A stretch of DNA of 64,000 bases from Candidatus Levyibacteriota bacterium (GTDB lineage Bacteria > Patescibacteriota > Microgenomatia > Levybacterales > UBA12049), in the NCBI GenBank assembly GCA_052034235.1, contig JBPOIT010000011.1:37756-101755 (forward strand), written 5' to 3'. Under the pieces are notes generated by a model, which was not told the origin of the DNA, made no database searches, and saw only the letters and a program-made list of their open reading frames with translations. The position numbers and the translations under genes are program-made. How positions within the stretch are numbered: the first letter of the stretch is position 1; each line of letters starts with the position of its first letter. Shown here piece after piece: positions 7,296 to 57,164 of this stretch.

Positions 7296-8651
7296 TCACA
7301 CTTGTGCGGCTTGATCTTTTTTTAAATTCCTTACCCTGGCTTGCTGAATTAACAGAACTCCCTCGTGAGGCACATCCGGCCTTGTTCCCTCAAATCCTTT
7401 TCCTTCCTGAAGTAATGGGAAATGTTTATTTTTCGCTAAGAATTCGAGAAGGCTGCCCCATGGGGCTTCTTTAACAGCATCTTTGCCAGTTTGACTTGTA
7501 TAGGCAATCTCTTCAGGATGAGCATGATGTTCTTTCTGCCCACCAACTTCATCCAGCGTTAACCAACTAAGTAATTTACCAGGTAATCCTGAATGAACAG
7601 TGTCTGTTGTCACTGAACCATCTTCTTCATTCAAATGGATATCATATTTTGTTCTCAGTGCAGCCTGAACTAATCTATTTTGATCAAAAACGCCTGCATG
7701 CCCCATAGAGTTTGTAACATTGCCCCCCACAAGCTCCAGACCTACACGAGCAGCATTTATTGCTGCACCAGTTATTACTGCTTCAGCGACACTCTTCCTA
7801 TCAAACTTTCTTCTCGTAAAAAGCACTGCTGCCGCAGGAATAGCAAAACCTGCAATAACATCACGAGCATGTGTACTTGTATTCTTACCATCAGGATGTT
7901 GCAAATCATCTGGTTTTCTTTCCGGATGATCAGTAAATAGTGCAGCTGCACGTTGATATAAACCGATATTTTTTAAAGCGATTCTCTTTACTCCATTTTC
8001 TCCTCCAGTCAGTACCGGAGAATGCGGATCTGTGAGAAGTATTTGTGCCATATCTTCAGTTGTCCATTCTCCTTTATGATGTTTATAATCGGGGTAAACA
8101 TAACGCGGGCTATGAGGATTTAATATTTCTCTGACTTCATCCGCAGTATAATCAGTTTTTTCCTGGTACACATCTCCTAATTTTTCTTTAATATGGTCTT
8201 TAGCTAAATTTCCTATTGTAACAACTTCATCAAGAGAAAATTCTGGTACAAAGGGGTCAAGATGAGGAAAAGCCTCGGGAACTTCTACTGTTCCGACATT
8301 TTCCGGACGCTGCGCCCACTCTATTGCTCCAGCCATTTGGAAAAAAGGAAAGAGTGAAGCGTCAGTCATTTCATGGTGGATTCTGTGAACAGATGCCCAT
8401 ATCGTTGGATCGCCAACTCCAAGTGAGCTTTGCTCTGCTTTAATAAGTGCCGAGACAACTGGATGAGGCTCCAAACTTCGGTGGGTTAAGTTTCGATGAT
8501 GCTCGATTGTAATTCCTGCAACGCCAATAAACCCTGCTGCCGCTCCTCCACCAATAATTTTCGCTGCTCTGCGCAAACCTTTATGCTTTCCATCTTCTGT
8601 GGAAGCTATTCTCTGTTCTTTTGACATATGATCATTTATTATAATGTACAA
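7296..8651 (-). CDS. Acyl-CoA delta-9 desaturase-like di-iron His-box protein, atypical (long insertions, few TM segments)
   Basis: His boxes HRNLTHRS (HxxxxH) and HRIHH (HxxHH) are 38 aa apart, as in stearoyl-CoA desaturases. NSMGHAGVFD resembles the conserved NSAAHxxG, followed by EHHAHP resembling HNNHHAFP. Alternative start at M9 (8627). GC looks higher than in neighbouring genes. Confidence 0.65.
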   Translation of the reverse strand: MYIIINDHMSKEQRIASTEDGKHKGLRRAAKIIGGGAAAGFIGVAGITIEHHRNLTHRSLEPHPVVSALIKAEQSSLGVGDPTIWASVHRIHHEMTDASLFPFFQMAGAIEWAQRPENVGTVEVPEAFPHLDPFVPEFSLDEVVTIGNLAKDHIKEKLGDVYQEKTDYTADEVREILNPHSPRYVYPDYKHHKGEWTTEDMAQILLTDPHSPVLTGGENGVKRIALKNIGLYQRAAALFTDHPERKPDDLQHPDGKNTSTHARDVIAGFAIPAAAVLFTRRKFDRKSVAEAVITGAAINAARVGLELVGGNVTNSMGHAGVFDQNRLVQAALRTKYDIHLNEEDGSVTTDTVHSGLPGKLLSWLTLDEVGGQKEHHAHPEEIAYTSQTGKDAVKEAPWGSLLEFLAKNKHFPLLQEGKGFEGTRPDVPHEGVLLIQQARVRNLKKDQAAQV

Positions 8652-10841: not shown

Positions 10842-11777
10842 ATGGATCAAAATATTCCAAACTCTAGCCCAACTGTAAATCCGGTAAAGAATCCCGAACC
10901 TCCGGTTAATCAACCACCAGTTGAACATGAGCAATCCTTTCAGCTAAATCAAACGCCAGCCACAACTCCACCACCTAGTAAAAAGCTTTCGATTCCTGTG
11001 GTGATTGTCCTTTTAATCCTTTCGTTCTTAGGAGGACTTTTCCTTGCAAGTTGGTATTATCAGAATCAGCTCGTAGATCTTAACAAAGCAAAGAAAGAAG
11101 TTGCTCCTGTAACAGCTAAAAATGAACTCATCATCGGAACAGATCCAACTGCGCCACCTATGGAATCATTAAGCGCATCAGGAACACTTATCGGATATGA
11201 CATAGACTTGGGTAATCGCATTGCTGATGGGTTAGATATGAAAGCAAAATTTGTCTCTACACCATGGGATACGATATTTGAGGATTTGGAAAATGGAAAA
11301 ATTGACGTCATTATTTCATCAGTCACCATTAATGAAGAGCGTAAGCAGAAATATGGTTTTTCTGAACCGTATATAAATGCAGGGCAAGTTATTGTATCCA
11401 GAAAGGATAATCAAATCACATCTGTTGAACAGTTGCGTGGAAAACGAATTTCTGTCCAAAAAGGCACGACCAATGAAAATGAAGCTTTAAAATACACCGC
11501 TAAAGAACTTGTCATCAGCTATGACGAGTTCGTAGTTGCTGCAAATGCAGTTTCAGTCGCATCAGCAGAGGCTATGATATCAGACTTAACTATGGCAAAA
11601 GGATTTATTGAAAAATATGATAATTTAAAAATTACGACCGATCCTTTTACAAATGAATATTACGGAGTAGTCATACGGAAAGATAATGTAGAGCTGCAAA
11701 AGAAAGTTAATGATGTATTATCAGTTCTTCGCGTCAATGGTGTCTTAACAGACTTAAAACAAAAATGGCTTGAATAG
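10842..11777 (+). CDS. Membrane-anchored family-3 substrate-binding protein (polar amino-acid ABC-type SBP fold)
   Basis: Pro-rich N-terminus plus a TM segment, then ELIIGTDPTAPPMESL...GYDIDLGNRIADGLDMKAKFVSTPWDTIFEDLENGKIDVIIS, typical of SBP_bac_3. Confidence 0.85.
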   Translation: MDQNIPNSSPTVNPVKNPEPPVNQPPVEHEQSFQLNQTPATTPPPSKKLSIPVVIVLLILSFLGGLFLASWYYQNQLVDLNKAKKEVAPVTAKNELIIGTDPTAPPMESLSASGTLIGYDIDLGNRIADGLDMKAKFVSTPWDTIFEDLENGKIDVIISSVTINEERKQKYGFSEPYINAGQVIVSRKDNQITSVEQLRGKRISVQKGTTNENEALKYTAKELVISYDEFVVAANAVSVASAEAMISDLTMAKGFIEKYDNLKITTDPFTNEYYGVVIRKDNVELQKKVNDVLSVLRVNGVLTDLKQKWLE

Positions 11778-11792
11778 CCTTACCTCGAATGA

Positions 11793-14033
11793 ATGAAATT
11801 AACGATACGAGCAAAATTACTGATAGGATTTACCTTGTTACTCCTTTTGTCTTCACTAGGGCTCGCCTTTTCATTCACAGCAACAGGTGACTACATTTCC
11901 TCACTCACCAAAGATAATCAGGCACAGGAAGCGAAAAAAGGTTCAGTACAAATTCAAAATTTCTTTACCAATATAAATGATATAACTTTTGGACTCGCTC
12001 GAACCTACAAAGATACTTTTTTAAATGCAAGTCAGTCGGCAGCATTTACAGATTTTAGTGCAATCAATCGCTATAGTATTCAAAATAATGAGCAGATCAA
12101 TAAAATAACCTACCTCTTACCTTCAGGACGACAACTCTATCGATTTGATATCCATGGACAAGTACCCCAGGATAGTTTGAATTATGAAGTTTATTCAGAC
12201 GCTTTCACTAATGCAGCACATGGAAAAACATCCATTTCAAAAGTGTACTTTATAGATCAATCATTAGGTCCACATTTAGATGTTTTTTCTCCTATTTATG
12301 ACAACAACCACACGGTGCGAAGTATCGTTAAGATGCAAATCAAACTTGAATCTCTGCGCAAGAAACTCGAAACGATTAAGTATGGTGAAAGGGGGTTTTT
12401 ATATGTTGTCGATGAAGAAGGTCGCCTCATAACACACCCATCCCAGCAATATGTTATACAGCGGCCAAACTTAACATCCCGAAAAATCGTTGCTATGACC
12501 GCACAGAACAAAAAGATAACTAAAAACGATGAAACTTATGTGAACGAAAAAAATATACCTGTTATTGCCAAGGCTGAGAAAATTCCAGGTATCAACTGGA
12601 TTGCAATTATTGAAGAACCACAAGTCGATGCAAATAGCTATCTCATTTTTCTTCGTAATCTTTTTATCAGTACCTTCATTGGAGCCTCACTCTTATTACT
12701 GCTTGTTTCACTCTATCTCAGCGAAAATTTCACACGGCCGATTAGACGATTACAGAAAGACGCTGAGAAAATTGAGAAAAAGCAAATGGACACTATGGAA
12801 ATAATAAAAACCGGAGATGAGATTGAAGCGTTATCGCGATCGTTTAGTTCAATGGTGAACCAATTATTATTACGCGAAAGCTCGATAAAAAATGAAAACC
12901 AAAAAATGATGACCTTACAACAATCCCTTTCAGATGCTGTGATTGGCCTTGATTCAGAATATCAAATTATCGCATTCAATAGAGCAACTGAAAAAATTAC
13001 AGGTTTTAAAGCGGAAGAAGTAAAGGGGAAACATATAAACGAAGTCTTATTGCTTTACTCTGATCACGAGAGAATTATATTTGATACATATAGCGATCAA
13101 AATCCATCAATGAAAGAAAAACTCCGCGAAAAAGGCTTAAGAATGACAAACACACGGGGAGAAAAACTTACTATTTCAATTACTACCTCCCCTATTCTTT
13201 TTGACGATAAAAAGACAGGTTATATCATAGCATTCCATGATATGACGAAAGAGCATGAACTGGAAGAAATGAAACTGGACTTTGTGTCTATGGCTGCACA
13301 TGAACTTCGTACACCTTTAACAGCAATTAGAGGCTATGCATCAATTCTTCAGCAACAGAAACAAGATCTTCTGGATGTTGTAGGAAAAGAAATGCTTCGA
13401 AAACTTATTATCACCGGTGAAAATCTAAGTAACCTGATAGATAATTTGTTAAGCGTTTCACGTATTGAACGCAATATGTTTAGTCTTGATAAAAAACCGG
13501 TAAAGGTAGATATGCTCATTACCAATGTCGTTGATACGCTAAAAAATCAAACGACAATGAAAAAACAACAATTGAACATTAAAGTCCCAGGCGATCTCCC
13601 CGAAATTATGGCTGATCCGTTTCGTATCACGCAGGTAATTTTAAACCTTGCCGCAAATGCGAGTAATTATACTTTTGAGAATGGAAGTATTACTATAGAA
13701 GCGCAAAAAAAGGACGGCTTTATTCAAGTATCTGTAACAGATTCGGGGCAAGGCATTCCAAAAGAAGCATTATCCAAGCTTTTTACTAAGTTCTTTAGAG
13801 TATCGGGCACACTTGAGCAAGGATCCAAAGGGACAGGATTAGGGCTTTATATTTCCAAATCGATAATAGAAATGCATAACGGTAAAATTTGGGTAGAAAG
13901 CGAGGTCGGCAAAGGATCAATATTTACTTTCGAACTTCCAACAGCTACTGATGAAGACATCAAACAATACAACGAACGAAACACAGCTCTCAAACTCTCA
14001 CAAGCAAACACACCTACCATACACCATAGCTAA
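11793..14033 (+). CDS. Sensor histidine kinase (Cache-like extracellular domain, HAMP, PAS, HisKA, HATPase_c)
   Basis: 746 aa. TM, a large periplasmic domain, a second TM, then a HAMP-like region. PAS at SLSDAVIGLDSEYQIIAFNRATEKITG. H-box at FVSMAAHELRTPLTAIRGY. G-boxes at GTGLGLYISKSIIEMHNGKIWVES. It lies 15 nt downstream of the SBP gene. Confidence 0.9.
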   Translation: MKLTIRAKLLIGFTLLLLLSSLGLAFSFTATGDYISSLTKDNQAQEAKKGSVQIQNFFTNINDITFGLARTYKDTFLNASQSAAFTDFSAINRYSIQNNEQINKITYLLPSGRQLYRFDIHGQVPQDSLNYEVYSDAFTNAAHGKTSISKVYFIDQSLGPHLDVFSPIYDNNHTVRSIVKMQIKLESLRKKLETIKYGERGFLYVVDEEGRLITHPSQQYVIQRPNLTSRKIVAMTAQNKKITKNDETYVNEKNIPVIAKAEKIPGINWIAIIEEPQVDANSYLIFLRNLFISTFIGASLLLLLVSLYLSENFTRPIRRLQKDAEKIEKKQMDTMEIIKTGDEIEALSRSFSSMVNQLLLRESSIKNENQKMMTLQQSLSDAVIGLDSEYQIIAFNRATEKITGFKAEEVKGKHINEVLLLYSDHERIIFDTYSDQNPSMKEKLREKGLRMTNTRGEKLTISITTSPILFDDKKTGYIIAFHDMTKEHELEEMKLDFVSMAAHELRTPLTAIRGYASILQQQKQDLLDVVGKEMLRKLIITGENLSNLIDNLLSVSRIERNMFSLDKKPVKVDMLITNVVDTLKNQTTMKKQQLNIKVPGDLPEIMADPFRITQVILNLAANASNYTFENGSITIEAQKKDGFIQVSVTDSGQGIPKEALSKLFTKFFRVSGTLEQGSKGTGLGLYISKSIIEMHNGKIWVESEVGKGSIFTFELPTATDEDIKQYNERNTALKLSQANTPTIHHS

Positions 14034-14053: not shown

Positions 14054-16261
14054 TTAATTGTTTGGGGCAATTGGAATTCCTGCGGTATTGACGTTTGGAA
14101 ATGGTATATCAGTAGGTTGAGGAACTGACGGTTTTTTCATAGGATTAAACGCCAACAGAAATGCTAAACCTTTATTTCTGTCAGGAGAAATATAATTCTG
14201 AAAATCTTTGTCAGTTCGCAATTCTTCAGGCAAACTTTTCCAAAATTCTTGCCAGGTAAAATCATCACCCTTTAACAAGGCTTCAGATAATTTCACCAAA
14301 ATTCCATCATTAATTTTCATGGTTCCCGTACTCTTGGTAGCAATAATTTGATTCTTCAGCACTGCCTCTAAGTTACCATACCCACCGCAAGATCCTAAAA
14401 AAACGAGCTCTACACCAGGTGGGATATGTGAGATAGTTTTCTCAACATGAGTGCTATGTCCGCGATGAGCAGCAACTTTCACCTGCTTACCCGCAACATC
14501 TAAAGCAGTCTCTATATCTTTTATACCCTTAACATCTTCAGAAGGTTTATTTGCCCAAATTTCTACTTTCTTTCCATTTACTTCTTGCGTTAGCACAATA
14601 TAACTTCCTTTATCAACAACCTTTACTCCATTTTTTTCTGTTGTTGGAATTTTGGCTATTATTCCCTGTTCATCCCACACTGCATCAAACCCATAACTAT
14701 TGAGCATATGCTTAAATGAATTATGACCGTCTAGTCGCTCCTCCCCTTTATCATTATAAAAATAGAATTGTTGCACATTTGTGTTATTAGCATCAAAAAA
14801 ATCTGCTGGTTTGACCTGATTCAAACTTGGTAGCGAATATTCCAAGCGAAGTTGTTTAATTATTGGATTCTCACTTCCATTATCTGCCAATACAGCTCCC
14901 AATAAGCCATATAGCTTTCTAGCATCCTTCCCAGTATGTCTATCCTCTGATACTCGTTTATATTCACTAATAATTAAATCTTCAAGCATCCGACGTTGGG
15001 CTGTATCTGAAATTGTTCCGAGAATATCAGCGGCTACCATGCCCTGTTCTGTAGGATTCTCTGCCTGTTCCAATCCCTTAACTGCGGTTAACAAAACCGC
15101 TGTCGCGTCTTCTTTTTTCATTGTACCGAGGAATTCATCAAGACGATTAAACTCTACAAGTTGCTTTACAAAACTGCTACGGCGAACATTACCAACCTGT
15201 GTAAGCAGTTCATTTCCATCTATGTGATTTGTTTGCATATCGGCCATCATTCTATTAAATAAACCATTAAACGATGAGGTATAAATACGACCGTCATTGT
15301 ATGCTATAAGTGGGTAAATTAGTTTTGCGGGTAAGCCCTCTACAACAGAGAATCTTTCAGAATCTTCTTGATCATGAAGATTATTTATATAGCTAACTTT
15401 ATTTTCAGCTATATTTAAAATTTCCCGTTCAACTGCAAAAGCTGCCAGATGATCAGGTACAGACTTAATATCTATAAGTTTTTTTAAGGCTATATTAGGA
15501 TGATTTAGCTGCCAATCCGCTGTGTCTTCATTTAAATTTCCGTTCATCATATCTTCAAGCAATATTCCTGTAGTTGGCATCGATAACGAGGCTATCTTTT
15601 TAACCACAGGGGATGCTTCAGGGTCATTTGCAAGTATTTCATCGAAAAGCTCTCTATAATGATCTTCTGCAATGAGTCGTGGATCTTGTACAAAAGCTGC
15701 TTCTAATAACTTTTTATATTCTTCTTTCACTAATAAACCTTTGAGATTTTTTTCATATTTCATATACGTTTCGGGAGACTGCGCAGTCAGATGCTCTATC
15801 TCCTTTTTAATTTCAGGTGTTATTTTTATGTATGGAACCATTCGTAGAAACTCGTCAGGATCTTTTTTCCTGAGCATTATGAGATCGCCCATAATTTCAG
15901 GGGTTAATACCGGTGGATGCTCTGTTGTAACCATTTGAGGTTCTTTTTTTTGTCCTACCGCATTTATTCTCTCAGTTATACTCTCGATTGTTAAAAATTT
16001 TTGTTCCTGCACCTGCTCAATCCCCTGATTAACTTTAAAGGATGATTCATTACCGGGAGATGAATCGATAGTGGATTTTGAAAAAGGATTAACAAGAGTA
16101 AGAACTGCAAGCCCAGCACTCATAGCTCTCGTTGTTCTATCAAATCTACGAACTGGTGGTTCTCCTCTTGGTGGTGAGGACCGAGCCTCATGTTGTCCAT
16201 GACGTGCTGAATGCTTTGATTTTAATGTCTCGTATATACTATCATCTCGTGTTTCACTCAT
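14054..16261 (-). CDS. Large hypothetical secreted or membrane-anchored protein (about 735 aa from the preferred start)
   Basis: The ORF track extends to 16390; I prefer the start MSETRDD... (ATG at 16259-16261). A single TM or signal anchor occurs at RAMSAGLAVLTLVNPF. The C-terminal VAAHRGHSTHV...VELVFLGSCGGYG weakly suggests a His/Cys hydrolase dyad (speculative). Confidence 0.65.
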   Translation of the reverse strand: MSETRDDSIYETLKSKHSARHGQHEARSSPPRGEPPVRRFDRTTRAMSAGLAVLTLVNPFSKSTIDSSPGNESSFKVNQGIEQVQEQKFLTIESITERINAVGQKKEPQMVTTEHPPVLTPEIMGDLIMLRKKDPDEFLRMVPYIKITPEIKKEIEHLTAQSPETYMKYEKNLKGLLVKEEYKKLLEAAFVQDPRLIAEDHYRELFDEILANDPEASPVVKKIASLSMPTTGILLEDMMNGNLNEDTADWQLNHPNIALKKLIDIKSVPDHLAAFAVEREILNIAENKVSYINNLHDQEDSERFSVVEGLPAKLIYPLIAYNDGRIYTSSFNGLFNRMMADMQTNHIDGNELLTQVGNVRRSSFVKQLVEFNRLDEFLGTMKKEDATAVLLTAVKGLEQAENPTEQGMVAADILGTISDTAQRRMLEDLIISEYKRVSEDRHTGKDARKLYGLLGAVLADNGSENPIIKQLRLEYSLPSLNQVKPADFFDANNTNVQQFYFYNDKGEERLDGHNSFKHMLNSYGFDAVWDEQGIIAKIPTTEKNGVKVVDKGSYIVLTQEVNGKKVEIWANKPSEDVKGIKDIETALDVAGKQVKVAAHRGHSTHVEKTISHIPPGVELVFLGSCGGYGNLEAVLKNQIIATKSTGTMKINDGILVKLSEALLKGDDFTWQEFWKSLPEELRTDKDFQNYISPDRNKGLAFLLAFNPMKKPSVPQPTDIPFPNVNTAGIPIAPNN

Positions 16262-16432
16262 ATTCGTGTACTTAAATAATACCATAACATGATATTTATA
16301 TTTATAACTTGAATTGCTTTTTAATAAAATTAAAAATTCTGGCAGCCAAAAACTATCATGATCTTTATCACGAGGTGAGCAATTTGACAATAAAAATGAT
16401 TCATTGTACCATGCTACATATCATATGATTAG

Positions 16433-17761
16433 ATGTTTACCTCAAACAGCAAATACATATCGCTAGTCGTTTTTATTACCCTTTTATTTACAATTGGCAA
16501 TCTTTTTCTGCTATATAAAAACGTGCAAACGATAAGAGCAAACGCAGCCTCAGTCAACCATACCCACACCGTCAAACAAGAACTAGCAGGAATCTTGCAA
16601 GCCCTGACCGATGCTGAAACTGGTCAGCGCGGTTATTTAATAACAAATGATGAGAGGTATCTAAAGCCTTATATCGATGCTAAACCTACTATGTTTAGGT
16701 ATTTAAACGATGTTGAAAATTTAACCCACGATAACCCAATACAACAAGCCAACGTCGACGAATTAAGAGCATTAGTGCAACAACGTATGAACTGGCTTGA
16801 AGAAGGTGTTAAAATGCGAACTGAACAAAATTACGAATCTGCACAGACTTTTATAACCACTGGTGTTGGTATAACGACAATGATTGAGGTGCGAGAGAAA
16901 GTATCAGCCATGCTGATCGAAGAAGATCGACTCCTGAAAGTGCGTGAAAATCAAACGAATAGCAGTTTTAGAACCCTCAATATTACGAGCGGCATTGGAG
17001 GTTTATTTAATATTGGATTAATACTTTTGTCTTTCTATTTAATAAAAGAAGAACTACAACGGCGTAATCAACTTGAGAAGAACAAAGACGATTTTATCAG
17101 TATGGCGAGTCATGAATTAAAAACGCCAATTACAAGTCTAAATATTTACACACAAATCGCCGTAAAAAATCTTGAGAGAAAAAAGTATACCGAGACAAAA
17201 AAGCTGCTTGAGAAAATAACCAACCAAACAGCTCGACTATCCTCACTCGTTACGGATTTACTGGATATCTCACGTGTTCAGACAGGAAAATTAAAAATTG
17301 AACACTCCCCTTTTGATATCGATGCACTCATTCATGAAACGGTCGAAAGTATCCAGCAAACGACAGCAAAGCATAAAATTACCGTAAAATCTACTATAAA
17401 ACGTCAGGTAAACGGAGATAGATATCGCATTTATCAAGTGTTAACAAACTTGCTAACGAACGCTGTCAAATATTCTCCCAAAGGAAAGAAAATTACCGTA
17501 CATGCGAAATCAACACGTAAAGAAGTAGTTATTGCTATAAAAGATCAAGGTATCGGTATTGAAAAGAAACATCAAAAAAAGATATTTCAAAAACTTTATC
17601 AAGTAACTGACTCTCATGGGAATACCTATCCTGGATTTGGGATCGGACTTTATATCAGTTCACAAATAATCAGGCAGCACCGTGGAAAAATTTGGGTAGA
17701 AAGTAAAAAAGAGAAAGGTTCAACATTCTCTTTTAGCATTCCGTTTAATGATAATGCATGA
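16433..17761 (+). CDS. Sensor histidine kinase with a CHASE3 extracellular domain
   Basis: 442 aa. TM, a CHASE3-like region (TDAETGQRGYLITNDERYLKPY), a second TM, an H-box at FISMASHELKTPITSLNIY and HATPase motifs at GFGIGLYISSQIIRQHRGKIWVES. Confidence 0.9.
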   Translation: MFTSNSKYISLVVFITLLFTIGNLFLLYKNVQTIRANAASVNHTHTVKQELAGILQALTDAETGQRGYLITNDERYLKPYIDAKPTMFRYLNDVENLTHDNPIQQANVDELRALVQQRMNWLEEGVKMRTEQNYESAQTFITTGVGITTMIEVREKVSAMLIEEDRLLKVRENQTNSSFRTLNITSGIGGLFNIGLILLSFYLIKEELQRRNQLEKNKDDFISMASHELKTPITSLNIYTQIAVKNLERKKYTETKKLLEKITNQTARLSSLVTDLLDISRVQTGKLKIEHSPFDIDALIHETVESIQQTTAKHKITVKSTIKRQVNGDRYRIYQVLTNLLTNAVKYSPKGKKITVHAKSTRKEVVIAIKDQGIGIEKKHQKKIFQKLYQVTDSHGNTYPGFGIGLYISSQIIRQHRGKIWVESKKEKGSTFSFSIPFNDNA

Positions 17762-21553: not shown

Positions 21554-23509
21554 TTAATTTTCCGGGTTATAAACAGAAAGAAATTCTTTAACCTGCTTAT
21601 GCTCCTCCAAAGTCTTTTTGGCAAGAATATCAATTGAAGAGAGTTTCTTTTCAAATATCTCTGTTTGCGCAAAGAAAGGATTTCTTTGAAGTGCTCGTCT
21701 TGCTTTTGTTGTGTGGTTGAGAATATCACTATAAATTGAAATAATATTTTTTTGCCAAAATTGCTCGTTCGTTTTTGCAACAAGAAGATCGATATTTAAT
21801 GCTAATTCCTGTCCTTTTTTCTGCAAATCTAATAATGCTTTTGCTGCAATTGCATTGATATGTCCATGTCTTAGATCCTCTTCAAAATCGTGCGCATCAT
21901 CATTGAGTTGTCGGGCAATTATATAATGATAGAAAAATTTCAAAAGCAACTTTACTTCTGGTGATTTTCTGTTATATCCTAAAGCAAACAAAACGGCAGT
22001 AGGCGCAATTGCATGACCCATTGAACGTTTAGCCAGCATTTCATATTTCCCATATTCAGGCACGTGAATATCGCCGATCCTAACAATCCCTGAAACATTT
22101 ATTCTGCATGTCTTAACCTCCCAACTATTTGCTAATTCTAACTCGTCCATTGTCTGGTGAAAAAATGTAAGAAACTCATCATTGTTTTCTAGAACTGTTG
22201 TGAATATTATGGTTAATTCCCGAAGTGCAATGTTTGCAATTGGCAGCATTTTAGCCTCTCCTTCCCCATCCAAAAAATCATCGTAAATTGTATAGGCAAT
22301 CCAACCATATAAACTTGCAGATCCCAAAATGATTATTTTTTCTATAGGGACTGTTTTATGAGTATTCTTACGACTAGCTAAAATTAAATATGGCAGAGCA
22401 GTTATTTCTGAACCCATCGCTCCATTAATTGTTTGGTTAATAATCGAATGGGCATCAGTTTTTAATTTGCTACTCTCTCGAATAAATCTACGAGAAACAC
22501 GACGAACCACTGCGTCTTGCACACGAACTACTTCAGTTAATTCATCATCAGTTGCGTTTTGTTTACTACTTTTCGTAAGCAATTTGTTATACTTTTCTAT
22601 TGCAAGTAAACAAAATGTAGTCGTTAATGCTTTCGAACCTGCATAATGCTTTTTTCCATCCATGACTGGATCTACGTAAAATCCAAAAGGATTCCATGCT
22701 CCACTTCGTTGTTGTGATACTAAATATTTTATATCTGCTTCAACTTTAGAAGGCGGCATTTTAAAATTAAGAAGCGCTAAAACGATAAGAGCACGAAGCA
22801 TTGGATTATCAATATGTTTATTCTTTAAATTAAGTAATATATCAATAAGTAACTTTTTTTTCTGACCCTTATACCAACGTGAAATAGAATAAATGACGGG
22901 AATTTCAGAATTATAATAAGGTGAGTTTATTTTATTATATTTAATGGCTGTATCGACGAAATTTACGAGACGAGGAAGTTCAATTTCTTGCAACGCAAGG
23001 AAATATGCAATGTTGCTATTAACGACAATATCTACATCCTTCCAAACAGATGATGCGTCTTCTGAAACTAACCATGTTTTATATGGTCCCCCTTCTTTGA
23101 CTTCAAGCACTGTCAATAGTGAAATAATACGTGCTAATGCAGCTCCATCCAATAATTTCGGATTAAATTCGTATAGCGCCGCTAGTGCACAAAAGGTATC
23201 ATCTAAATCATCAGGATAAGGAAATCTTATCGATTCTTTTGAATTACGTTCCCAATAATTAAATGACCAATTTTCTGTTCTTTGTGAAAGTAAATATGAG
23301 GCCGCTTTCTTTTTCATTTTTTTAATTTGCAAATTATCATCAATGTGATTCAAACACGTGAGTATCAACGCCGTTGGAAAAATTGAGTGTAATTTCTTTG
23401 AAGAACTAAAATCATCGGGGTTAGAAGATGAATAACTTATAAAACAACCATTTGCACGCTGTTGGCTTTCAAGAAAAGCAATCCCCTTCTCTATCGATTT
23501 TTTATACAT
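21554..23509 (-). CDS. Two-domain terpenoid-enzyme-like protein. N-terminal class II terpene-cyclase-like alpha/alpha-barrel domain fused to a C-terminal squalene/phytoene-synthase-like (class I isoprenoid synthase fold) domain
   Basis: 651 aa. Three QW-type motifs (KGIAFLESQQRANGCF, AASYLLSQRTENWSF, IKYLVSQQRSGAW) plus PYPDDLDDTFCALAAL, which matches the DxDDTA motif of squalene-hopene/CPP-type cyclases. The C-terminal YTIYDDFLDG (Asp-rich motif 1) and ARQLNDDAHDFEEDLRHGHIN resemble the second Asp-rich motif of CrtM/PSY (QL.N...D..ED...G.I). Its start lies 4 nt after the kinase stop, so the two are translationally coupled. Confidence 0.7.
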   Translation of the reverse strand: MYKKSIEKGIAFLESQQRANGCFISYSSSNPDDFSSSKKLHSIFPTALILTCLNHIDDNLQIKKMKKKAASYLLSQRTENWSFNYWERNSKESIRFPYPDDLDDTFCALAALYEFNPKLLDGAALARIISLLTVLEVKEGGPYKTWLVSEDASSVWKDVDIVVNSNIAYFLALQEIELPRLVNFVDTAIKYNKINSPYYNSEIPVIYSISRWYKGQKKKLLIDILLNLKNKHIDNPMLRALIVLALLNFKMPPSKVEADIKYLVSQQRSGAWNPFGFYVDPVMDGKKHYAGSKALTTTFCLLAIEKYNKLLTKSSKQNATDDELTEVVRVQDAVVRRVSRRFIRESSKLKTDAHSIINQTINGAMGSEITALPYLILASRKNTHKTVPIEKIIILGSASLYGWIAYTIYDDFLDGEGEAKMLPIANIALRELTIIFTTVLENNDEFLTFFHQTMDELELANSWEVKTCRINVSGIVRIGDIHVPEYGKYEMLAKRSMGHAIAPTAVLFALGYNRKSPEVKLLLKFFYHYIIARQLNDDAHDFEEDLRHGHINAIAAKALLDLQKKGQELALNIDLLVAKTNEQFWQKNIISIYSDILNHTTKARRALQRNPFFAQTEIFEKKLSSIDILAKKTLEEHKQVKEFLSVYNPEN

Positions 23510-23513
23510 ACAA

Positions 23514-25004
23514 TTACTTTTTTTTAGATTTATTTTTCGTTTTCTTTTTAAGTTTAAGAGACGGATTAAATATCAAGGTAAACGTTGTTCCTGCACCTTC
23601 TTTACTTATTACTTCTATTGATCCTTTAAATTCTTTTTCTACAATATCTTTACAAAGCGCGAGTCCTATACCCGTTCCTTTTTCAAAACTTTTCGTGGTA
23701 AAAAGAGGATCATAAATTTTAGGAATAATACTTGCAGGAATACCAGAACCCCAATCCTGTATTGAGATAATCACAGATCCTTTACTTTTGTTCATTGTGA
23801 TTTTAATTTTATTATTTTCATGATCTATTTTATCGTAGGAATCTATACCATTTGAAATAATATTTGTGACAAGCTGATTGAACTTTAAAGGATTTCCAAA
23901 GAGTTTCACCTCACTTTGAGACTCATATATGATTTTTATATCCTCATGTGATGCTTTATACGTCAACATTTGAATCACTTGTTTTATTTCATCATTCAGT
24001 GAAAATTCCTGACTGATATCTTGGGTTTGGATTTGTTTCCTGGCTGCTCTTAAATAGCTTTCAATTCTTTCAGTTCCTATTTGTGCGCGATTCAAAGACG
24101 AATAAAGTTTTTCCTGAATTTGTATATGCTCGCTGTTCCTTCGTGCTTGTTCTAAATTTAAGGAGATAACATTTAATGGAGCCACCAATTCATGAAATAA
24201 ACCTGAAGATAATCTACCAAATTCTGCAAAGCGATAAAGCTGCATCAGTTTTTCAACCTGAACTTTTTTCAATTCCTGGGTCCTCTCTGCTACCATGACT
24301 TCTAACTGATCACGCTGTTTTTTCAAAGCAAGTTCTGACGACCGTGCACGTCTTAAAGCCTTTTCCATTTCACGATTATACAGCCATGAAATGAGTGCGA
24401 TTATAAAAAGAATGACTGTATACACAGTAACATCCGCTATAGTCGCTGGTAATTGTGTCCATGAAGTATTAAACGTAATAATGTGGTTCTCATAAGCAAA
24501 TAACAAGACTAATAATGTTAAGGATATAAGAATCGTAGCAAAAAGTGCAAATGATGAACTAATGAGAATTCCACCCATAATAATTACTAGGACATATGTA
24601 AGTAACGCAGAGGGAATATCTATTCCCCAGGTATAACTGGTATAAGTCGCTCCTAGGAAAAAAAGCGTTAGTAGAAAATAAGCAGCATATCGGTATTTGC
24701 CTTTATGCGAGAAATAATAATTAAGAAGTAATACAAAAAAAATACAGGAAGGAATTATTGATGATTCACCAACGAAAGCACTCCCTGTATTAGAATCTAC
24801 AACATCCGTAATAAGAGCAGATATAACTGCAACAAAGGTCAAACCTAATGCTGAGGTAAGAAGGATATTCAAAATGAATTTTCTTCTTGCCACATCCTTA
24901 TTATTTGATTTCGACTCAATAAATACTTTATATAATTTCTTTAATTTATAAAGTACGACGTGAGCTATATCAGATGATGTAAATGTATTCTTTATTATTG
25001 CCAT
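23514..25004 (-). CDS. Sensor histidine kinase, intramembrane-sensing type (6 TM, no large extracytoplasmic domain)
   Basis: 496 aa. N-terminal polytopic membrane region. H-box at LSSGLFHELVAPLNVISLNLE. HATPase motifs at QDWGSGIP and GTGIGLALCKDIVEK. Confidence 0.9.
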   Translation of the reverse strand: MAIIKNTFTSSDIAHVVLYKLKKLYKVFIESKSNNKDVARRKFILNILLTSALGLTFVAVISALITDVVDSNTGSAFVGESSIIPSCIFFVLLLNYYFSHKGKYRYAAYFLLTLFFLGATYTSYTWGIDIPSALLTYVLVIIMGGILISSSFALFATILISLTLLVLLFAYENHIITFNTSWTQLPATIADVTVYTVILFIIALISWLYNREMEKALRRARSSELALKKQRDQLEVMVAERTQELKKVQVEKLMQLYRFAEFGRLSSGLFHELVAPLNVISLNLEQARRNSEHIQIQEKLYSSLNRAQIGTERIESYLRAARKQIQTQDISQEFSLNDEIKQVIQMLTYKASHEDIKIIYESQSEVKLFGNPLKFNQLVTNIISNGIDSYDKIDHENNKIKITMNKSKGSVIISIQDWGSGIPASIIPKIYDPLFTTKSFEKGTGIGLALCKDIVEKEFKGSIEVISKEGAGTTFTLIFNPSLKLKKKTKNKSKKK

Positions 25005-25102
25005 GGTCTTGCGACAACTGGAGTTACCAACGCAACTAATGTCAACGCTGTAACACTTCTGGCAGCTTTACTTGTTAGGGTTTTCTTTAATATTTCTTTC
25101 AT
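24995..25102 (-). CDS. Micro-ORF (35 aa) with a signal-peptide-like or TM peptide, between the response regulator and the kinase
   Basis: The sequence aggaggtgataaaATG gives a strong Shine-Dalgarno. Translation MKEILKKTLTSKAARSVTALTLVALVTPVVARPWQ*. Its stop overlaps the kinase start by about 10 nt. Confidence 0.4.
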   Translation of the reverse strand: MKEILKKTLTSKAARSVTALTLVALVTPVVARPWQ

Positions 25103-25146: not shown

Positions 25147-25815
25147 TTAAGCTTCTAATTTGTAACCCATACCGTGAACTGTTTTTATAAGTTTTTTGTC
25201 AAAAGCTTTATCAATGTGATCTCGGAGGTATTTAATGTGAACATCAATAGTGTTCGTTGAGGGCTCCTCGACTGTACTCCATACATGATCCAGAATCATT
25301 TCTCTCGTAATAATTCTTCCAACATTCCTAGCAAGGTATTCAAGTAAATAAAACTCTTTCTTTCTCAGTGAAATTCTTTTTCCCTCTCTTGATACCCTCT
25401 GATTATTTAAATCAATTTCAAGATCAGCGATCGAAATTATATTTGACTGAAGTGCTTGAGCAGGTCTTCTAAGCAAAGCACGTATCCGCGCTAATAATTC
25501 GTCCATATGAAAGGGTTTTGTGAGGTAATCATCAGCACCGGCGTTGAGTGCATCCACTTTTTTTGCAACAGCATCTTCTCCAGTTAACATTAATACAGGG
25601 ATAGTTTTCCCACCTTCTCTAATAATTCTACAAACTTCCAACCCACTCATGCCTGGCAGATTAAAATCAACAATAATGATGTCATATTCATTAACAAATG
25701 CTGCATATTCTCCTTCTTCCCCAGATAGAGCTATATCAACAACATAATTTTCTTCTAACTCTTCTTTAAGAGTCTGGGCTAAAACATTATCATCTTCTAT
25801 CAACAATATTTTCAT
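25147..25815 (-). CDS. OmpR/PhoB-family response regulator (receiver plus winged-helix DNA-binding domain)
   Basis: MKILLIEDD...IIIVDFNLPGMSGLEVC...DDYLTKPFHMDELLARIRALLRR, then the C-terminal winged helix (DVHIKYLRDHID...TVHGMGYKL). Confidence 0.95.
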   Translation of the reverse strand: MKILLIEDDNVLAQTLKEELEENYVVDIALSGEEGEYAAFVNEYDIIIVDFNLPGMSGLEVCRIIREGGKTIPVLMLTGEDAVAKKVDALNAGADDYLTKPFHMDELLARIRALLRRPAQALQSNIISIADLEIDLNNQRVSREGKRISLRKKEFYLLEYLARNVGRIITREMILDHVWSTVEEPSTNTIDVHIKYLRDHIDKAFDKKLIKTVHGMGYKLEA

Positions 25816-27584: not shown

Positions 27585-28223
27585 CTATTTCTTCTTTCGT
27601 GAACTCAGAAAGAGAGCTCCACCGGATAGCGCAAGTGCAACAACACTGAGTGCTGTTGGCAGACTTGCATCTGTCGAGGCTGGTTTTTCCGTTTCGGAAT
27701 GACTGCCTTCAGCTAAAGCGAGATCATTAACGATCTTCGTTTCAGAATATGGCTTTACATCGTGATCGTCATGATCCTGGCTCGGTGCCTGATCCCAAGC
27801 AACCACTTCTCCATCCGAATAGGTTTGATATGCCTTCCATTGCAATGTTGTTTCTTCAGCAGGTACTTGTGCACTGAATAGAAATTCATCACGCTGACCA
27901 GCAGGAATAGATCCGCCCGTCCAGATAATCTCTGTAACAACTGCTGCTTCTCCTTCTCCAGATTTTTTGACTTCAATCGTCCATCCCGGTTTTACATTGG
28001 GAGTCACATACTGCAGCCCGCTAGGAATAACAAGACGCAACGCAACTGTAGGTACATCTTTTTCATTAGGAACCCCTGTCGTAAATGTTTGGAATGCAGC
28101 TGAACCAACTTGATTTGGTTTTACTGTGACATGCGCTGAAACAAAGGCCGCACTCATTAAAAAGACGCCAGTCAATGCAACACTTACTACTGTTTTTGTT
28201 ATATTCTTTTTTTGATTTTTCAT
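27585..28223 (-). CDS. YcnI-like DUF1775 copper-binding protein with a C-terminal TM anchor
   Basis: Signal peptide, then AHVTVKPNQVGSAAFQTFTTGVPNE...VIPSGLQYVTPNVKPGW, the DUF1775 pattern with His as the first mature residue. C-terminal hydrophobic anchor plus KKK. Confidence 0.7.
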   Translation of the reverse strand: MKNQKKNITKTVVSVALTGVFLMSAAFVSAHVTVKPNQVGSAAFQTFTTGVPNEKDVPTVALRLVIPSGLQYVTPNVKPGWTIEVKKSGEGEAAVVTEIIWTGGSIPAGQRDEFLFSAQVPAEETTLQWKAYQTYSDGEVVAWDQAPSQDHDDHDVKPYSETKIVNDLALAEGSHSETEKPASTDASLPTALSVVALALSGGALFLSSRKKK

Positions 28224-28317
28224 TTATATACACACCTCCTTTCTTTTCCTCATGTGATATGAGTTTTAGACTCGATAAGTTGTTACTTACCGGTGAAAAC
28301 CTTAGAGCTTTTGGGAA

Positions 28318-28677
28318 TTACACAATTTCTGGTGGAGACCGAGGAGAATGATGAAGAGTAACGAAAGGAATATATCTTTGCGGCTGGCATGTTAACTTAT
28401 ATCCATTTAATAAATCACTTTGTGAAAAATCTAAAATATTTGTAATAACCGCAAATTGAGGTAAACAACATGCATGCACTTGTACGTGAGATATCGTTTC
28501 ATCATGAGCCATAAAAAGCATCATCACCGGCACATGATGAAAAGCTATAAAGACGAGCAAGACGCATGAAAGCAAGGCGTGTTGCGTATGAAGTATGTTT
28601 ATTTTATCGCGGAAAAGCCAAAGAAGTAAAACAGCAGGTACAGCAGAAAAAATGATGTGATAAACGTGTTCGTGCAT
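28318..28677 (-). CDS. His-rich small membrane protein (possible metal-handling)
   Basis: 119 aa, about 3 TM. HHVPVMMLFMAHDETISHVQVHACC. Context only. Confidence 0.45.
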   Translation of the reverse strand: MHEHVYHIIFSAVPAVLLLWLFRDKINILHTQHALLSCVLLVFIAFHHVPVMMLFMAHDETISHVQVHACCLPQFAVITNILDFSQSDLLNGYKLTCQPQRYIPFVTLHHSPRSPPEIV

Positions 28678-28680
28678 GTA

Positions 28681-29229
28681 TTATCGTTTTGCCTTTTTTG
28701 TGTGTTTTTTGTAGAGTACCAATGAGACAAGTGAAAAACCAATAATTCCCACACTAAAATGAGGCAAATGATCTAAGAACCAGTTACTCTTCTTTTCTGT
28801 CACGGTATCACTGTTCCGTTCCACTCGCTGGTTAAAAGAAAGCGTAAAATCATCAAATGCTCCAGCAGACAAAGGCTTACCTGTAATTTTTATAACGTAC
28901 ACGCCTCGTTTGGGGAATGCATAATAAACGCTGGCATTTGTAAGACTCGGCTGTGAATTATTTTGAAACAATGGCTGGCTGTAAAGTTCTTGGCCGTTAC
29001 TTGTAACTGAAAATGTACATTCACATAACTTGGGATCAAAAGTATTTTTTTTATCTTTGAATTCAAAATAGAAACTACTTTCCTCCCCGACGACTGGATC
29101 GTCTTCTGGTTGAATATGCATAACTGCACCAATCGATTCATCAATTTTAAGGACATGCGCTAAATTTGATTGTGGGAATGCCAAGAAAACTGCTAAGAAG
29201 AAAACTATATGAAGAATTATTCTTTTCAT
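28681..29229 (-). CDS. Secreted, C-terminally anchored protein. A stand-alone copy of the HxHP-type domain found duplicated in the neighbouring large membrane protein
   Basis: Signal peptide ending in AHV. Contains AVMHIQPEDDP and AFPKRGVYVIKITGKP, similar to FNHIHPDASED and FPKAGEYHLYLDF of ORF 29249..30796. Confidence 0.55.
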   Translation of the reverse strand: MKRIILHIVFFLAVFLAFPQSNLAHVLKIDESIGAVMHIQPEDDPVVGEESSFYFEFKDKKNTFDPKLCECTFSVTSNGQELYSQPLFQNNSQPSLTNASVYYAFPKRGVYVIKITGKPLSAGAFDDFTLSFNQRVERNSDTVTEKKSNWFLDHLPHFSVGIIGFSLVSLVLYKKHTKKAKR

Positions 29230-29248
29230 TACTTTGCCTTATTGTGAA

Positions 29249-30796
29249 TTATTTTACCGTAACTGTAAAGTCTGCTGTAAACAGTTTTGCATCAGGATTA
29301 AACTGAGCAAAGACTCGGTATATTCCTGGTTTTATCGGGCCGTAGAGACCGAGCGGCATAAATTCAACAGTTGGGCCGCCATTGGCGTTTGGTTCTGGTG
29401 GTGTTATATTTGTCGGATGCACATGCAAATATTCAAATGTCTCCTGATTAATCATCACCAAATGGCCATAGGCAGCTAAATATGGTTTAAGCGTCGTTAC
29501 TGGTTTGCCAGATTTATCTTGAATAGTAAATGTCATCAGTTGTTTACCTATTGAGAGTTGCGACGCGAGAAGCGGCTTGGGAGCCTGCAAACTGACTTGG
29601 TAATCGCCAAATGCTTTTTTAAATGATTCATCAGGCACACTCGTTGCTTTAATGGCAGTCCCCTTCGAACCAACGGTTACTGTGAAAGCCATTTGTTGTT
29701 CAATTGCTCCCAATGGTTGAAAATCAAGATAAAGATGATATTCCCCTGCTTTTGGAAATTGCGTCGTTATCACAAAACCATCTTCACTTGCATCAGGATG
29801 AATGTGATTAAAATATGTCAGTGAACTATCTACGATAATTAAATGTACTGGTTTATCATAAAGTGTTTTGAAATAACGCACAGGATTGCCGGAACTTGCA
29901 TCAAAAACTTTAAACTGCAATTGTGTCTTTTGATTTGGTTTGATAGTGTCTTCGTATAGAAAACTTGTTGTGAAGCGTTTTGTTTTGTCACCATCCATTC
30001 CTGGCAGTTTGGGGGTATTTTGGGTAGTGTTCCCCTGTTGAGCCTCTTTCGCTAGTTGAATATGCTGACTGTGGACACTAAAAGGAGATTCTTTCTGCGG
30101 CATCACAACAGATGTTATATAAAAAGTAAGAACAGAAGCCACTACTATGATTGTTACCATACCAAACTTAGGGATTGATGGAAATTTATTATATAAAAAG
30201 GAATCAAATCGTATCGCTTCAAGTATAACTAAAAATGTTAATGCCCCAAAGAAAATCTGTGGGATGAATTCAGAGAAGGACCTGAAATGAGTTCCAAGCA
30301 TAAGTGCATGGATAACAATAAACAAACCTGCAAAATAGATAATTTGCTCCCACACTTTTGCTCTAAAAAAACGAAACCTCTTAACCAGAATCTCTATAGA
30401 CAGAAGCGAAACTATCGTAAGAATGGCTAACGCACAAAAACCAAGCACAGCGTTGAGGACATAACGATCGCTCAAAAAGAAAAGGCCCTCCCAGCCACCT
30501 AATAACCCGTAAAAAGCGATAGCTGCATGAATGGCTGCAAAATACCATGCTACGGCAATCGCGGGTTTATAAATACTTTTGTAAATGTTAAGCCAAGGAA
30601 GTGTGGGAAACGAATAATTGAGAGGTCTATATAGTAAAGCTATGTATAAACTTGTCAGTGCACTTAATGCATAGACTTGCGCAAGTCTGATAAGAAAAAC
30701 TGATCCATCTGAATAAACTAGCTGCAACAAACCAAAAACCAAGGCTGAATAAAGTACACAAGAGAAGAGCAGAGACAGTTTGCTTTTGTTGAGCAT
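29249..30796 (-). CDS. Polytopic membrane protein (ferric-reductase/CopD-like His-containing TM core) with two C-terminal extracytoplasmic HxHP-motif domains
   Basis: 515 aa. About 7 TM, with His in helices (AAIHAAIAFY, IVIHALMLGTHF). Duplicated ~110-aa domains carry FNHIHP / YLHVHP and FPKAGEY / IKPGIYRVF. Confidence 0.6.
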   Translation of the reverse strand: MLNKSKLSLLFSCVLYSALVFGLLQLVYSDGSVFLIRLAQVYALSALTSLYIALLYRPLNYSFPTLPWLNIYKSIYKPAIAVAWYFAAIHAAIAFYGLLGGWEGLFFLSDRYVLNAVLGFCALAILTIVSLLSIEILVKRFRFFRAKVWEQIIYFAGLFIVIHALMLGTHFRSFSEFIPQIFFGALTFLVILEAIRFDSFLYNKFPSIPKFGMVTIIVVASVLTFYITSVVMPQKESPFSVHSQHIQLAKEAQQGNTTQNTPKLPGMDGDKTKRFTTSFLYEDTIKPNQKTQLQFKVFDASSGNPVRYFKTLYDKPVHLIIVDSSLTYFNHIHPDASEDGFVITTQFPKAGEYHLYLDFQPLGAIEQQMAFTVTVGSKGTAIKATSVPDESFKKAFGDYQVSLQAPKPLLASQLSIGKQLMTFTIQDKSGKPVTTLKPYLAAYGHLVMINQETFEYLHVHPTNITPPEPNANGGPTVEFMPLGLYGPIKPGIYRVFAQFNPDAKLFTADFTVTVK

Positions 30797-44385: not shown

Positions 44386-44392
44386 ATAATGC

Positions 44393-45796: not shown

Positions 45797-45837
45797 TGTC
45801 TCACAGGGTGTAGTGTTGTATCGTTCTTTTAAGAACC

Positions 45838-56260: not shown

Positions 56261-56297
56261 CTTGACTCAAAACGAGTTTTCCCGCATGATAAGATAA

Positions 56298-57161: not shown

Positions 57162-57164
57162 TCT

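Follow-up and report, generated by a model that had tools for sequence, protein, structure and literature searches.

A predicted peptide prenyltransferase-terpene cyclase fusion encoded with a small Trp peptide and a two-component system in Patescibacteria

Gene X, as we call a 651-residue open reading frame (ORF) in a 64,000-nucleotide (nt) stretch of contig JBPOIT010000011.1 from a Candidatus Levyibacteriota bacterium (GenBank assembly GCA_052034235.1; this whole stretch is referred to as the window), encodes a class II terpene cyclase domain fused to an all-α domain folded like the trans-isoprenyl diphosphate synthases (IPPS). The gene is the last of a four-gene module in which it follows a response regulator, a 35-amino acid (aa) peptide, and a histidine kinase with six transmembrane (TM) segments. 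Both domains carry nearly invariant catalytic motifs, the synteny of the four genes is conserved, and so is a Trp residue close to the C terminus of the peptide. Taken together, these features make gene X most likely a bifunctional maturase of a ribosomal peptide signal, and its product is probably a terpene-decorated peptide rather than a bulk terpenoid.

Gene X has at least 784 homologues, each of about 650 aa; among these matches the nearest stand at 100, 82, and 50% identity and are followed by a long tail at 39–46%. Motif conservation was counted over 302 non-redundant full-length homologues. In the DxDD general-acid motif, in which D103 is the "middle" Asp, D101 and D103 are each kept in 293 of the 302 sequences and T105 in 295. 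D410 and D414 of the first Asp-rich motif, which lies at the end of helix 389–413, are present in all 302, with position 411 occupied by Asp in 245 and by Asn in 50, and the conserved core of this motif in the family is DxxxD. In the second motif Q534, D537, D541, and D545 are found without exception, and H540 in 300 sequences. The sequence-only reading that preceded this analysis had singled out these stretches as PYPDDLDDTFCALAAL, YDDFLD, and ARQLNDDAHDFEEDLRHGHI, and each is present in the 651-aa ORF as quoted. Because the motif residues are nearly or completely invariant across the homologues, the pattern is far beyond chance. The three N-terminal QW-like repeats described in the same reading can be read directly from the translation, the first as K8-G-x-x-F-L-x-x-x-Q17-x-x-x-G21-x-F23, the second as K68-A-x-x-Y-L-x-x-Q76...W81, and the third as Y261-L-x-x-x-Q266-x-x-G269-x-W271. 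Its remark that a His occupies the Ser/Thr position of the NSE/DTE motifs is literally true but moot, because the corresponding i+8 Glu, at position 544, is not conserved (Glu in 106, Lys in 63, and Asp in 53 homologues). A Pfam model, PF28380.1, is a precomputed match on homologues P0026, P0035, P0056, P0063, P0093, P0105, and P0117 and may already describe part of the family. Among the Saccharibacteria homologues, a search for cultured or named hosts returned only proteins from metagenome-assembled genomes (MAGs), labeled hypothetical or "prenyltransferase/squalene oxidase repeat."

The AlphaFold model of gene X (mean predicted local distance difference test score, pLDDT, 91.4; predicted template modeling score, pTM, 0.79) places the boundary between the two domains in the vicinity of residue 320, where residues 316–320 form the only segment with a pLDDT below 50, so the proposed division into two domains holds. 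The N-terminal domain is a class II terpene cyclase β domain, a single (α/α)6 barrel that stands without a γ domain and carries the canonical DxDD acid motif. Searches of Pfam, NCBIfam, and the PDB with the single sequence gave only marginal matches for the N terminus (TED_complement, 1.4e-6; squalene_cyclas, 0.0016; Prenyltrans), and TIGR01787 and SQHop_cyclase_C were further weak profile matches. We rejected TED_complement as a functional lead, the match being a generic α/α-toroid resemblance. When a profile of 31 family members was searched against the PDB, residues 34–310 matched the cyclase domain of the HAD-like drimenol synthase AsDMS (9mhs, 9m7d) with an E value of 1.1e-12. In this alignment PDDLDDT falls on PDDLDTT of AsDMS, bringing the DxDD aspartates onto its DLDTT motif, and the C-terminal GSxALTTAFCLEAL falls on GSRELSTAFALEAL. 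Foldseek with the gene X model also returned AsDMS as the top match (E = 1.5e-11); the second-best structural match of the cyclase domain is the monodomain meroterpenoid cyclase MstE (6sbb). The refuting outcome named in the sequence-only reading for this domain, an assignment to non-catalytic PFTB-repeat proteins, did not arise.

AsDMS and MstE, the best matches of the N-terminal domain in sequence and structure, are both cyclases composed of a β domain only, with a DxD(D/T)T acid motif, and in AsDMS, as is predicted for gene X, the cyclase is fused to a second catalytic domain that handles the diphosphate. The likeness has limits: the partner domain in AsDMS is a HAD phosphatase, whereas that in gene X has the IPPS fold, and gene X keeps the canonical DxDD where AsDMS has DxDT and MstE has DxD. 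A further difference concerns the pocket. In AsDMS the diphosphate is held at the mouth of the cyclase pocket by R368, R370, and R415 (PMC12232559). These arginines align with W156, D158, and P197 of gene X, which are themselves conserved in the family, and for this reason the cyclase domain appears to have no obvious diphosphate site. Such an absence agrees with a substrate whose diphosphate is gone before the cyclase acts on it, and it is what would be expected, together with the structural match to MstE, if the substrate is a prenylated peptide.

The C-terminal domain (C-domain) was described in the sequence-only reading as squalene/phytoene-synthase-like. The superfamily was right, since in the AlphaFold model the domain belongs unambiguously to the isoprenoid-synthase fold, with two conserved Asp-rich motifs, but the subfamily was not. 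In structure searches with full-length gene X the second set of matches consists of trans-isoprenyl diphosphate synthases, among them the indole prenyltransferase Ord1 (score 20.2), the prenyltransferase domain of PvCPS (19.9), and MoeN5 (17.9); class IB (14.1) and class I (∼13) terpene synthases and the squalene synthase HpnC (12.9) follow lower down. No member of the family matches the squalene/phytoene synthase profile of Pfam (SQS_PSY, PF00494), and R-Q-L-N-D-D-A-H-D at the end of helix 517–547 matches F-Q-x-x-D-D-x-x-D, so that the second motif, assigned earlier to the CrtM/PSY/SQS type, has the spacing of an IPPS motif instead. The domain is likewise no class I terpene cyclase α domain, having neither the pair DDxxD and (N,D)Dxx(S,T)xxxE nor its closest structural matches in that class.

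At the level of sequence the C-domain stands apart. It had no Pfam or NCBIfam match in a single-sequence search, and its profile returned only noise against PDB sequences. Run against 1.84 billion representatives, the same profile matched 1,653 proteins at E ≤ 0.001 (50%-identity cluster representatives), 1,157 of them below 1e-30; nearly all of the matches listed have this fusion architecture, none of them forms a bridge to another family, and the one short match that was checked is a fragment at a contig end. The differences from the trans-isoprenyl diphosphate synthases (polyprenyl_synt) extend from this lack of significant profile similarity to the residues of the active site. GKxxR and RRG are the motifs that bind isopentenyl diphosphate (IPP) in established IPPS enzymology, and both are invariant in the polyprenyl synthases encoded in related gene X operons. 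In the C-domain, by contrast, no position of residues 321–429 is Lys or Arg in at least 80% of the 302 homologues, no RRG-like stretch follows the first motif, and the loop with a Lys after the second motif is deleted. Because these conserved basic residues and the RRG are lacking, we read the IPP (homoallylic) site as absent; the domain should be able to bind an allylic diphosphate and ionize it, yet not to carry out a condensation with IPP.

This is the behavior of the trans-IDS-like prenyltransferases (those resembling trans-isoprenyl diphosphate synthases) that act on Trp, and several of their traits recur in gene X. StheQ uses the first and last Asp (D85 and D89) of its first motif (bioRxiv 10.64898/2026.08.29.745113), and the equivalent D410 and D414 are the two invariant residues noted above. 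The Gln one helical turn before the second motif, a proposed contact to Trp or diphosphate, is provided by Q534, a feature that does not discriminate because ordinary IPPS enzymes also carry this Gln (FQxxDD). The C-domain falls outside the ComQ family by sequence (IPR033965), lacking its pseudo second Asp-rich motif (pseudo-SARM, NDxxx). Gene X may therefore work like the Trp prenyltransferases at most, and it is not a ComQ-family protein by sequence.

The context of gene X was sampled in 80 loci from species-representative genomes, out of 192 that matched the search, and neighbor conservation was determined by tblastn and by all-against-all clustering of every ORF in the sampled loci. Only three neighbors of gene X are conserved. 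Wherever a related locus extends upstream of gene X, it has an orthologue of the kinase immediately before the gene and in the same orientation; the clustering found the kinase in 77 of 81 loci, the others being cut off. The contig of the closest relative, P0002, ends inside the kinase. The junction between kinase and X is mostly −4 to +5 nt. From hydropathy and conservation, the kinase has about six hydrophobic segments joined by short loops, followed by a coiled coil and a HisKA-like H-box. Of 81 loci, 64 have the regulator, which in most cases lies upstream of the kinase and in the same orientation, and two distant homologues of gene X also have an OmpR-type regulator and a histidine kinase upstream, as in the window. 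The fourth most frequent neighbor is a bona fide polyprenyl diphosphate synthase. In 16 of 80 loci its gene belongs to the module, placed either directly behind X or between regulator and kinase, and it would supply the prenyl donor. These synthases (L003/L004 1080–6329 among them) are of two sequence types, DWLLIHDD(V/I/F)ED...ERR between regulator and kinase and LLIHDDIID...RRG right after X. In locus L003, genes for a Caroten_synth (PF04240) protein and an HD-domain protein lie nearby as well.

The loci also hold a conserved small ORF, which is unannotated in the window. ORFs of 35–38 aa between regulator and kinase were first listed in the gene calls of two loci. A hidden Markov model (HMM) built from 27 of the peptides was then searched on 33,055 small ORFs (every start, six frames) from 82 loci, and it matched in 70 of these, with a single match per locus that in every case immediately precedes the kinase and shares its strand. 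In the window the ORF has a strong ribosome-binding site (AAAGGAGGTGATAAAATG) and is preceded by AAAGGAGG. All loci without a match lack the upstream DNA except L021, in which the peptide frame is intact at 6230–6520 (…KKLLKKVFINKVIRD…TTLVWS; …TKKLLKKVFINKVIRDTMAISAFVVIIMETTLVWS, then a stop) but no ATG, GTG, or TTG comes before the leader; this copy could have a non-canonical start, contain a sequencing error, or be decaying. The 69 distinct peptides are 34–40 aa long and combine a common leader, MKxLIKKILTDKxxR (L[TVSKE]xxxxR in 65 of the 69), with a variable middle region. Exactly one Trp is present in 68 of the 69, followed by 1–6 residues to the C terminus, and it is preceded by Pro in 57. 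Judged by this conservation, the small ORF is a protein-coding gene that automated annotation has mostly missed. A short peptide gene with a near-C-terminal Trp beside the enzyme, as expected for a Trp prenyltransferase, is thus found in 70 loci, and modifying enzyme, precursor, membrane kinase, and regulator are clustered as in ComQXPA-type loci.

Table 1. Positions of gene X, its domains and motifs, and the other genes of the module in the window
Feature	Position	Strand	Basis or remark
Gene X, fusion enzyme of 651 aa (β domain of a class II terpene cyclase and predicted trans-IPPS-fold prenyltransferase domain)	21554..23509	-	ATG-to-stop ORF, stop codon included
N-terminal domain, residues 1–316, single (α/α)6 β domain of a class II terpene cyclase, three QW-like repeats	22562..23509	-	
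C-terminal domain, residues 321–651, all-α trans-isoprenyl-diphosphate-synthase fold, predicted prenyl-donor-binding prenyltransferase	21557..22549	-	
DDLDDT, residues 100–105, DxDD general-acid motif	23195..23212	-	Translation
DDFLD, residues 410–414, first Asp-rich motif	22268..22282	-	Translation
QLNDDAHDFEED, residues 534–545, Gln and second Asp-rich motif (Q-x-x-D-D-x-x-D)	21875..21910	-	Translation
Histidine kinase, 496 aa, about six TM segments with short loops	23514..25004	-	HATPase_c, E 1e-20; 4 nt between its end and gene X
Small ORF, 35-aa precursor-like peptide MKEILKKTLTSKAARSVTALTLVALVTPVVARPWQ, just upstream of the kinase	24995..25102	-	10-nt overlap with the kinase start
OmpR-type response regulator, 222 aa, first gene of the module	25147..25815	-	Response_reg, E 3.8e-27; Trans_reg_C, E 4.7e-26

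Two groups of known systems resemble the module. In the ComQXPA pheromone (quorum-sensing) system of Bacillus, its recently characterized relatives StheQ/StheX (bioRxiv 10.64898/2026.08.29.745113), and PalP/PalX/PalQ, a set of kinase, Trp peptide, and prenyltransferase (PMC10853753), an IPPS-fold prenyltransferase without IPP chemistry is encoded beside a small precursor with a variable core and a conserved near-C-terminal Trp, and a histidine kinase of the multi-TM kind and a response regulator are encoded in the same locus. These enzymes, like gene X, conserve the first Asp-rich motif and the Gln that precedes the second. They differ from it in that ComQ has the pseudo-SARM where gene X has a full DDxxD, in the extra class II cyclase domain of gene X, in the gene order (regulator, peptide, kinase, and enzyme), and in the precursors, which at 34–40 aa are shorter than the ∼55–69 aa of the ComQXPA type. 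The regulator differs as well, being OmpR-type rather than NarL-type. ComA is a NarL-type regulator.

The second group comprises the fused prenyltransferase-cyclase maturases ChrPC, with a trans-IDS-like P domain, and NctPC, with an ABBA P domain (Hubrich et al., Chem 2024). According to a 2026 review (PMC13290415), the MstE-like C domain of these enzymes cyclizes the prenyl group after its transfer to Trp, and the review states that all characterized trans-IDS-like prenyltransferases target Trp. With these maturases, as the review describes them, gene X has in common a peptide-Trp prenyltransferase or its predicted equivalent joined in one polypeptide to an MstE-like single-domain class II cyclase, and a short ribosomal peptide with a target Trp encoded beside the enzyme; the P domain of ChrPC is also of the same trans-IDS fold class as the C-domain. 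The architecture, put forward as novel in the sequence-only reading, had to that extent been reported in 2024. The order of the domains seems to differ, the cyclase being N-terminal and the prenyltransferase C-terminal in gene X, whereas the "PC" of the name alone suggests the opposite for ChrPC. On the same descriptive comparison, the hosts of gene X are Patescibacteria, the enzyme is hard-wired to a two-component system, and the precursors form a 34–40-aa family of their own, not a proteusin, Nif11, or lasso type.

Given that the folds and the context match the logic of ComQXPA and PalPXQ together with that of ChrPC and NctPC, we propose that the peptide is prenylated on Trp, that the prenyl group is cyclized, and that the product is sensed by the kinase. 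The scheme is inferred in each of its chemical steps, in the chain length and the order of the reactions, in how the peptide is exported and cleaved, and in what the kinase binds. The C-domain would bind an allylic prenyl diphosphate (C10–C20) through Mg2+ held by D410/D414 and D537/D538/D541 and ionize it, and the prenyl cation would pass to the indole of the single near-C-terminal Trp, as with ComQ, PalQ, StheQ, and the P domain of ChrPC. With the prenyl chain now on the peptide, D103 of the N-terminal domain would protonate its distal double bond and so bring about ring formation, as in the C domains of ChrPC and NctPC. After processing and release, the peptide would be sensed by the membrane kinase co-transcribed with gene X, and signaling through the OmpR-type regulator would close an autoinducer loop like that of ComQXPA.

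Several observations weigh against this proposal. Neither ComQ, Ord1, and StheQ nor any PDB chain is significantly similar in sequence to the C-domain, and its assignment to the Trp-prenyltransferase branch rests on the fold, the missing IPP residues, and the context. When it was aligned by hhalign with the genuine polyprenyl synthases of related operons the probability was 1.9%, which is not significant, although this alignment still puts the second motif on their AFQIxDD. The second motif, in which a full DDxxD is accompanied by an invariant His and by D545 as a third Asp, is unlike the pseudo-SARM of ComQ and StheQ and could mean a complete trinuclear metal site and a different reaction. 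A prenyl diphosphate synthase is encoded in only 20% of the loci, with none in the 64-kb window by tblastn, and no exporter or leader protease is conserved in the neighborhood of the module in the sampled loci; ComQXPA is likewise not known to have a conserved exporter or protease nearby. In many copies from Microgenomates and Parcubacteria the middle of the peptide is hydrophobic, and the peptide could bear a signal peptide or TM segment or be a small membrane partner of the kinase. The literature that we searched holds no experiment on any member of the gene X family.

The main rival is that gene X is a free-standing bifunctional terpene synthase acting only on a polyprenyl diphosphate, with a peptide unrelated to its chemistry. 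The β domain might carry out a class II cyclization before the α domain ionizes or removes the diphosphate, as in the HAD-TC-β drimenol synthase and abietadiene synthase, or the order might be the reverse, as with YtpB and SqhC in Bacillus; the product would be a cyclic terpenoid of small size, serving as a membrane lipid or as a diffusible signal, and the neighboring two-component system would control it. In favor of this explanation, neither catalytic motif varies, the best match of the N-terminal domain is an enzyme that cyclizes farnesyl diphosphate (FPP), 16 loci have a polyprenyl synthase in the operon, and the full DDxxD with the D537/D541/D545 face comes nearer to a complete trinuclear metal site than does the ComQ pseudo-SARM. 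The call for a bifunctional terpenoid enzyme in the sequence-only reading remains a fair one, but the context favors a peptide substrate over FPP, geranylgeranyl diphosphate (GGPP), or squalene alone, and we regard the free-standing synthase as unlikely, if still worth reckoning with. A membrane-lipid or hopanoid-surrogate role following a DesK-like logic was dropped as a lead after the Trp-peptide ORF was found.

The remaining explanations are weaker. Were the C-domain a chain-elongating prenyl diphosphate synthase feeding the class II cyclase, gene X would be a minimal bacterial counterpart of PvCPS, a fungal enzyme in which a GGPP synthase and a copalyl diphosphate synthase are joined; the missing basic residues at the GKxxR and RRG sites, the low profile-profile probability against real polyprenyl synthases, the separate genuine polyprenyl synthase of 16 operons, and the absence of a diphosphate site from the β domain make this improbable. 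That same absence would suit a head-to-head domain of the squalene/phytoene synthase kind that makes a squalene-like hydrocarbon for the cyclase, as would the DxxxD core of the first motif and the resemblance by eye of AxQLNDDAHDFEEDLRHGHI to the DxxED...GRxY second motif of CrtM/PSY. With the structural and profile matches pointing elsewhere, we give this version very little chance. We attach equally little weight to gene X being a non-catalytic accessory or sensor of the kinase, for instance one that recognizes prenyl diphosphates or lipid II-cycle intermediates as a cytoplasmic receptor: its strict genetic and apparent translational coupling to the kinase would agree with that role, but the general-acid and metal-binding Asp residues are kept at 97–100% over very deep divergence (33–50% identity), as expected of active enzymes. 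Maturation of the small Trp peptide remains the reading that we favor.

The four-gene module occurs in at least 192 species representatives, spanning Microgenomates, Parcubacteria, Saccharibacteria, Doudnabacteria, and CPR2. In the 80 sampled loci the informatively named hosts are all Patescibacteria (Levy-, Davies-, Shapiro-, Colwell-, Morani-, and Doudna-bacteria, Paceibacterota, Saccharimonadales, and CPR2). Some MAGs with the same synteny are labeled Gammaproteobacteria, Methylomirabilota, Sulfotelmatobacter, Vitreimonas, Dormibacterota, or Bacillota (L006, L010, L014, L020, L045, L051, L052, L077, L080, and others). Some of their contigs reach 1.3–1.4 Mb, as long as a genome of the Candidate Phyla Radiation, and these labels are probably automatic or reflect mis-binning.

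Elsewhere in the window, a 1118-aa protein encoded at 2480–5836 (-) has an Rce1-like CAAX prenyl-endopeptidase (CPBP) domain at residues 409–502 and a YcdB/YcdC repeat. Its domain is suggestive for pheromone processing, but the gene is 17 kb from the module and is not syntenic with it in other loci. Two further peptidases are a stand-alone cysteine peptidase of the C39-like kind that has TPR repeats (40838–41923, +) and one of the M48 family (HtpX/Ste24-type; 50516–51349, +); both families include proteases of leader peptides or prenylated proteins. Two further sensor kinases have no adjoining response regulator, a dCache/HAMP/PAS protein behind a family-3 solute-binding protein gene (10842–14033, +) and a CHASE3 protein (16433–17761, +). 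At 27585–30796 (-) a secreted DUF1775 (YcnI-like) protein is followed by ORFs of 119, 182, and 515 aa, mostly hydrophobic, in what may be a metal-handling cluster; the 515-aa ORF, the only one of the three scanned, had no Pfam match. A fused 609-aa transketolase-like gene adjoins a split transketolase pair (N-half and C-half) at 54431–58157 (+), and we rejected it as a 1-deoxy-D-xylulose 5-phosphate (DXP) synthase on its profile scores (DXP_synthase_N, 2.7e-10, versus Transketolase_N, 1.7e-45). ORFs of 778, 451, 342, 467, and 467 aa at 14054–16390 (-), 7296–8651 (-), and 43357–47241 matched no Pfam family (E 0.001–0.01). An Rfam scan found no family anywhere in the window, and a promoter and terminator scan gave counts at the level of shuffled sequence.

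Patescibacteria make up a large share of bacterial diversity, have tiny genomes, live mostly attached to other cells, and are seen as nearly without secondary metabolism. In the searchable literature we found no paper linking ComQ-like enzymes, prenyltransferases, or terpene cyclases to them. Squalene-hopene cyclases were not found in bacteria of the Candidate Phyla Radiation (CPR) (PMC7306690), and reports of biosynthetic clusters from Patescibacteria are rare (PMC7298704). Fused prenyltransferase-cyclase peptide maturases and ComQ-type pheromone loci are each already known; as far as the searchable literature shows, what is new here is the combination of both, the apparent cyclase-first order, the precursor family, and the restriction to Patescibacteria together with the breadth of occurrence within them.

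If the peptide-maturase reading holds, gene X extends a new class of peptide maturases that install cyclized isoprenoids, and for enzymology it would offer a compact, soluble cyclase-prenyltransferase fusion with a 35-aa substrate. The wider proposition, that Patescibacteria own a phylum-wide, vertically conserved pheromone circuit in which a 35-aa peptide is prenylated on Trp and polycyclized by the fusion enzyme and then sensed by the six-TM kinase, we put forward tentatively, rating its chances a little short of even. If true, these ultra-small bacteria would have been assigned their first cell-cell (or symbiont-host) signaling system and their first terpenoid-modified peptide, and it would be the first case of a class II terpene cyclase shaping a quorum-sensing signal. 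A terpenoid-decorated peptide that is both made and sensed would give a testable handle on communication or density sensing in Patescibacteria.

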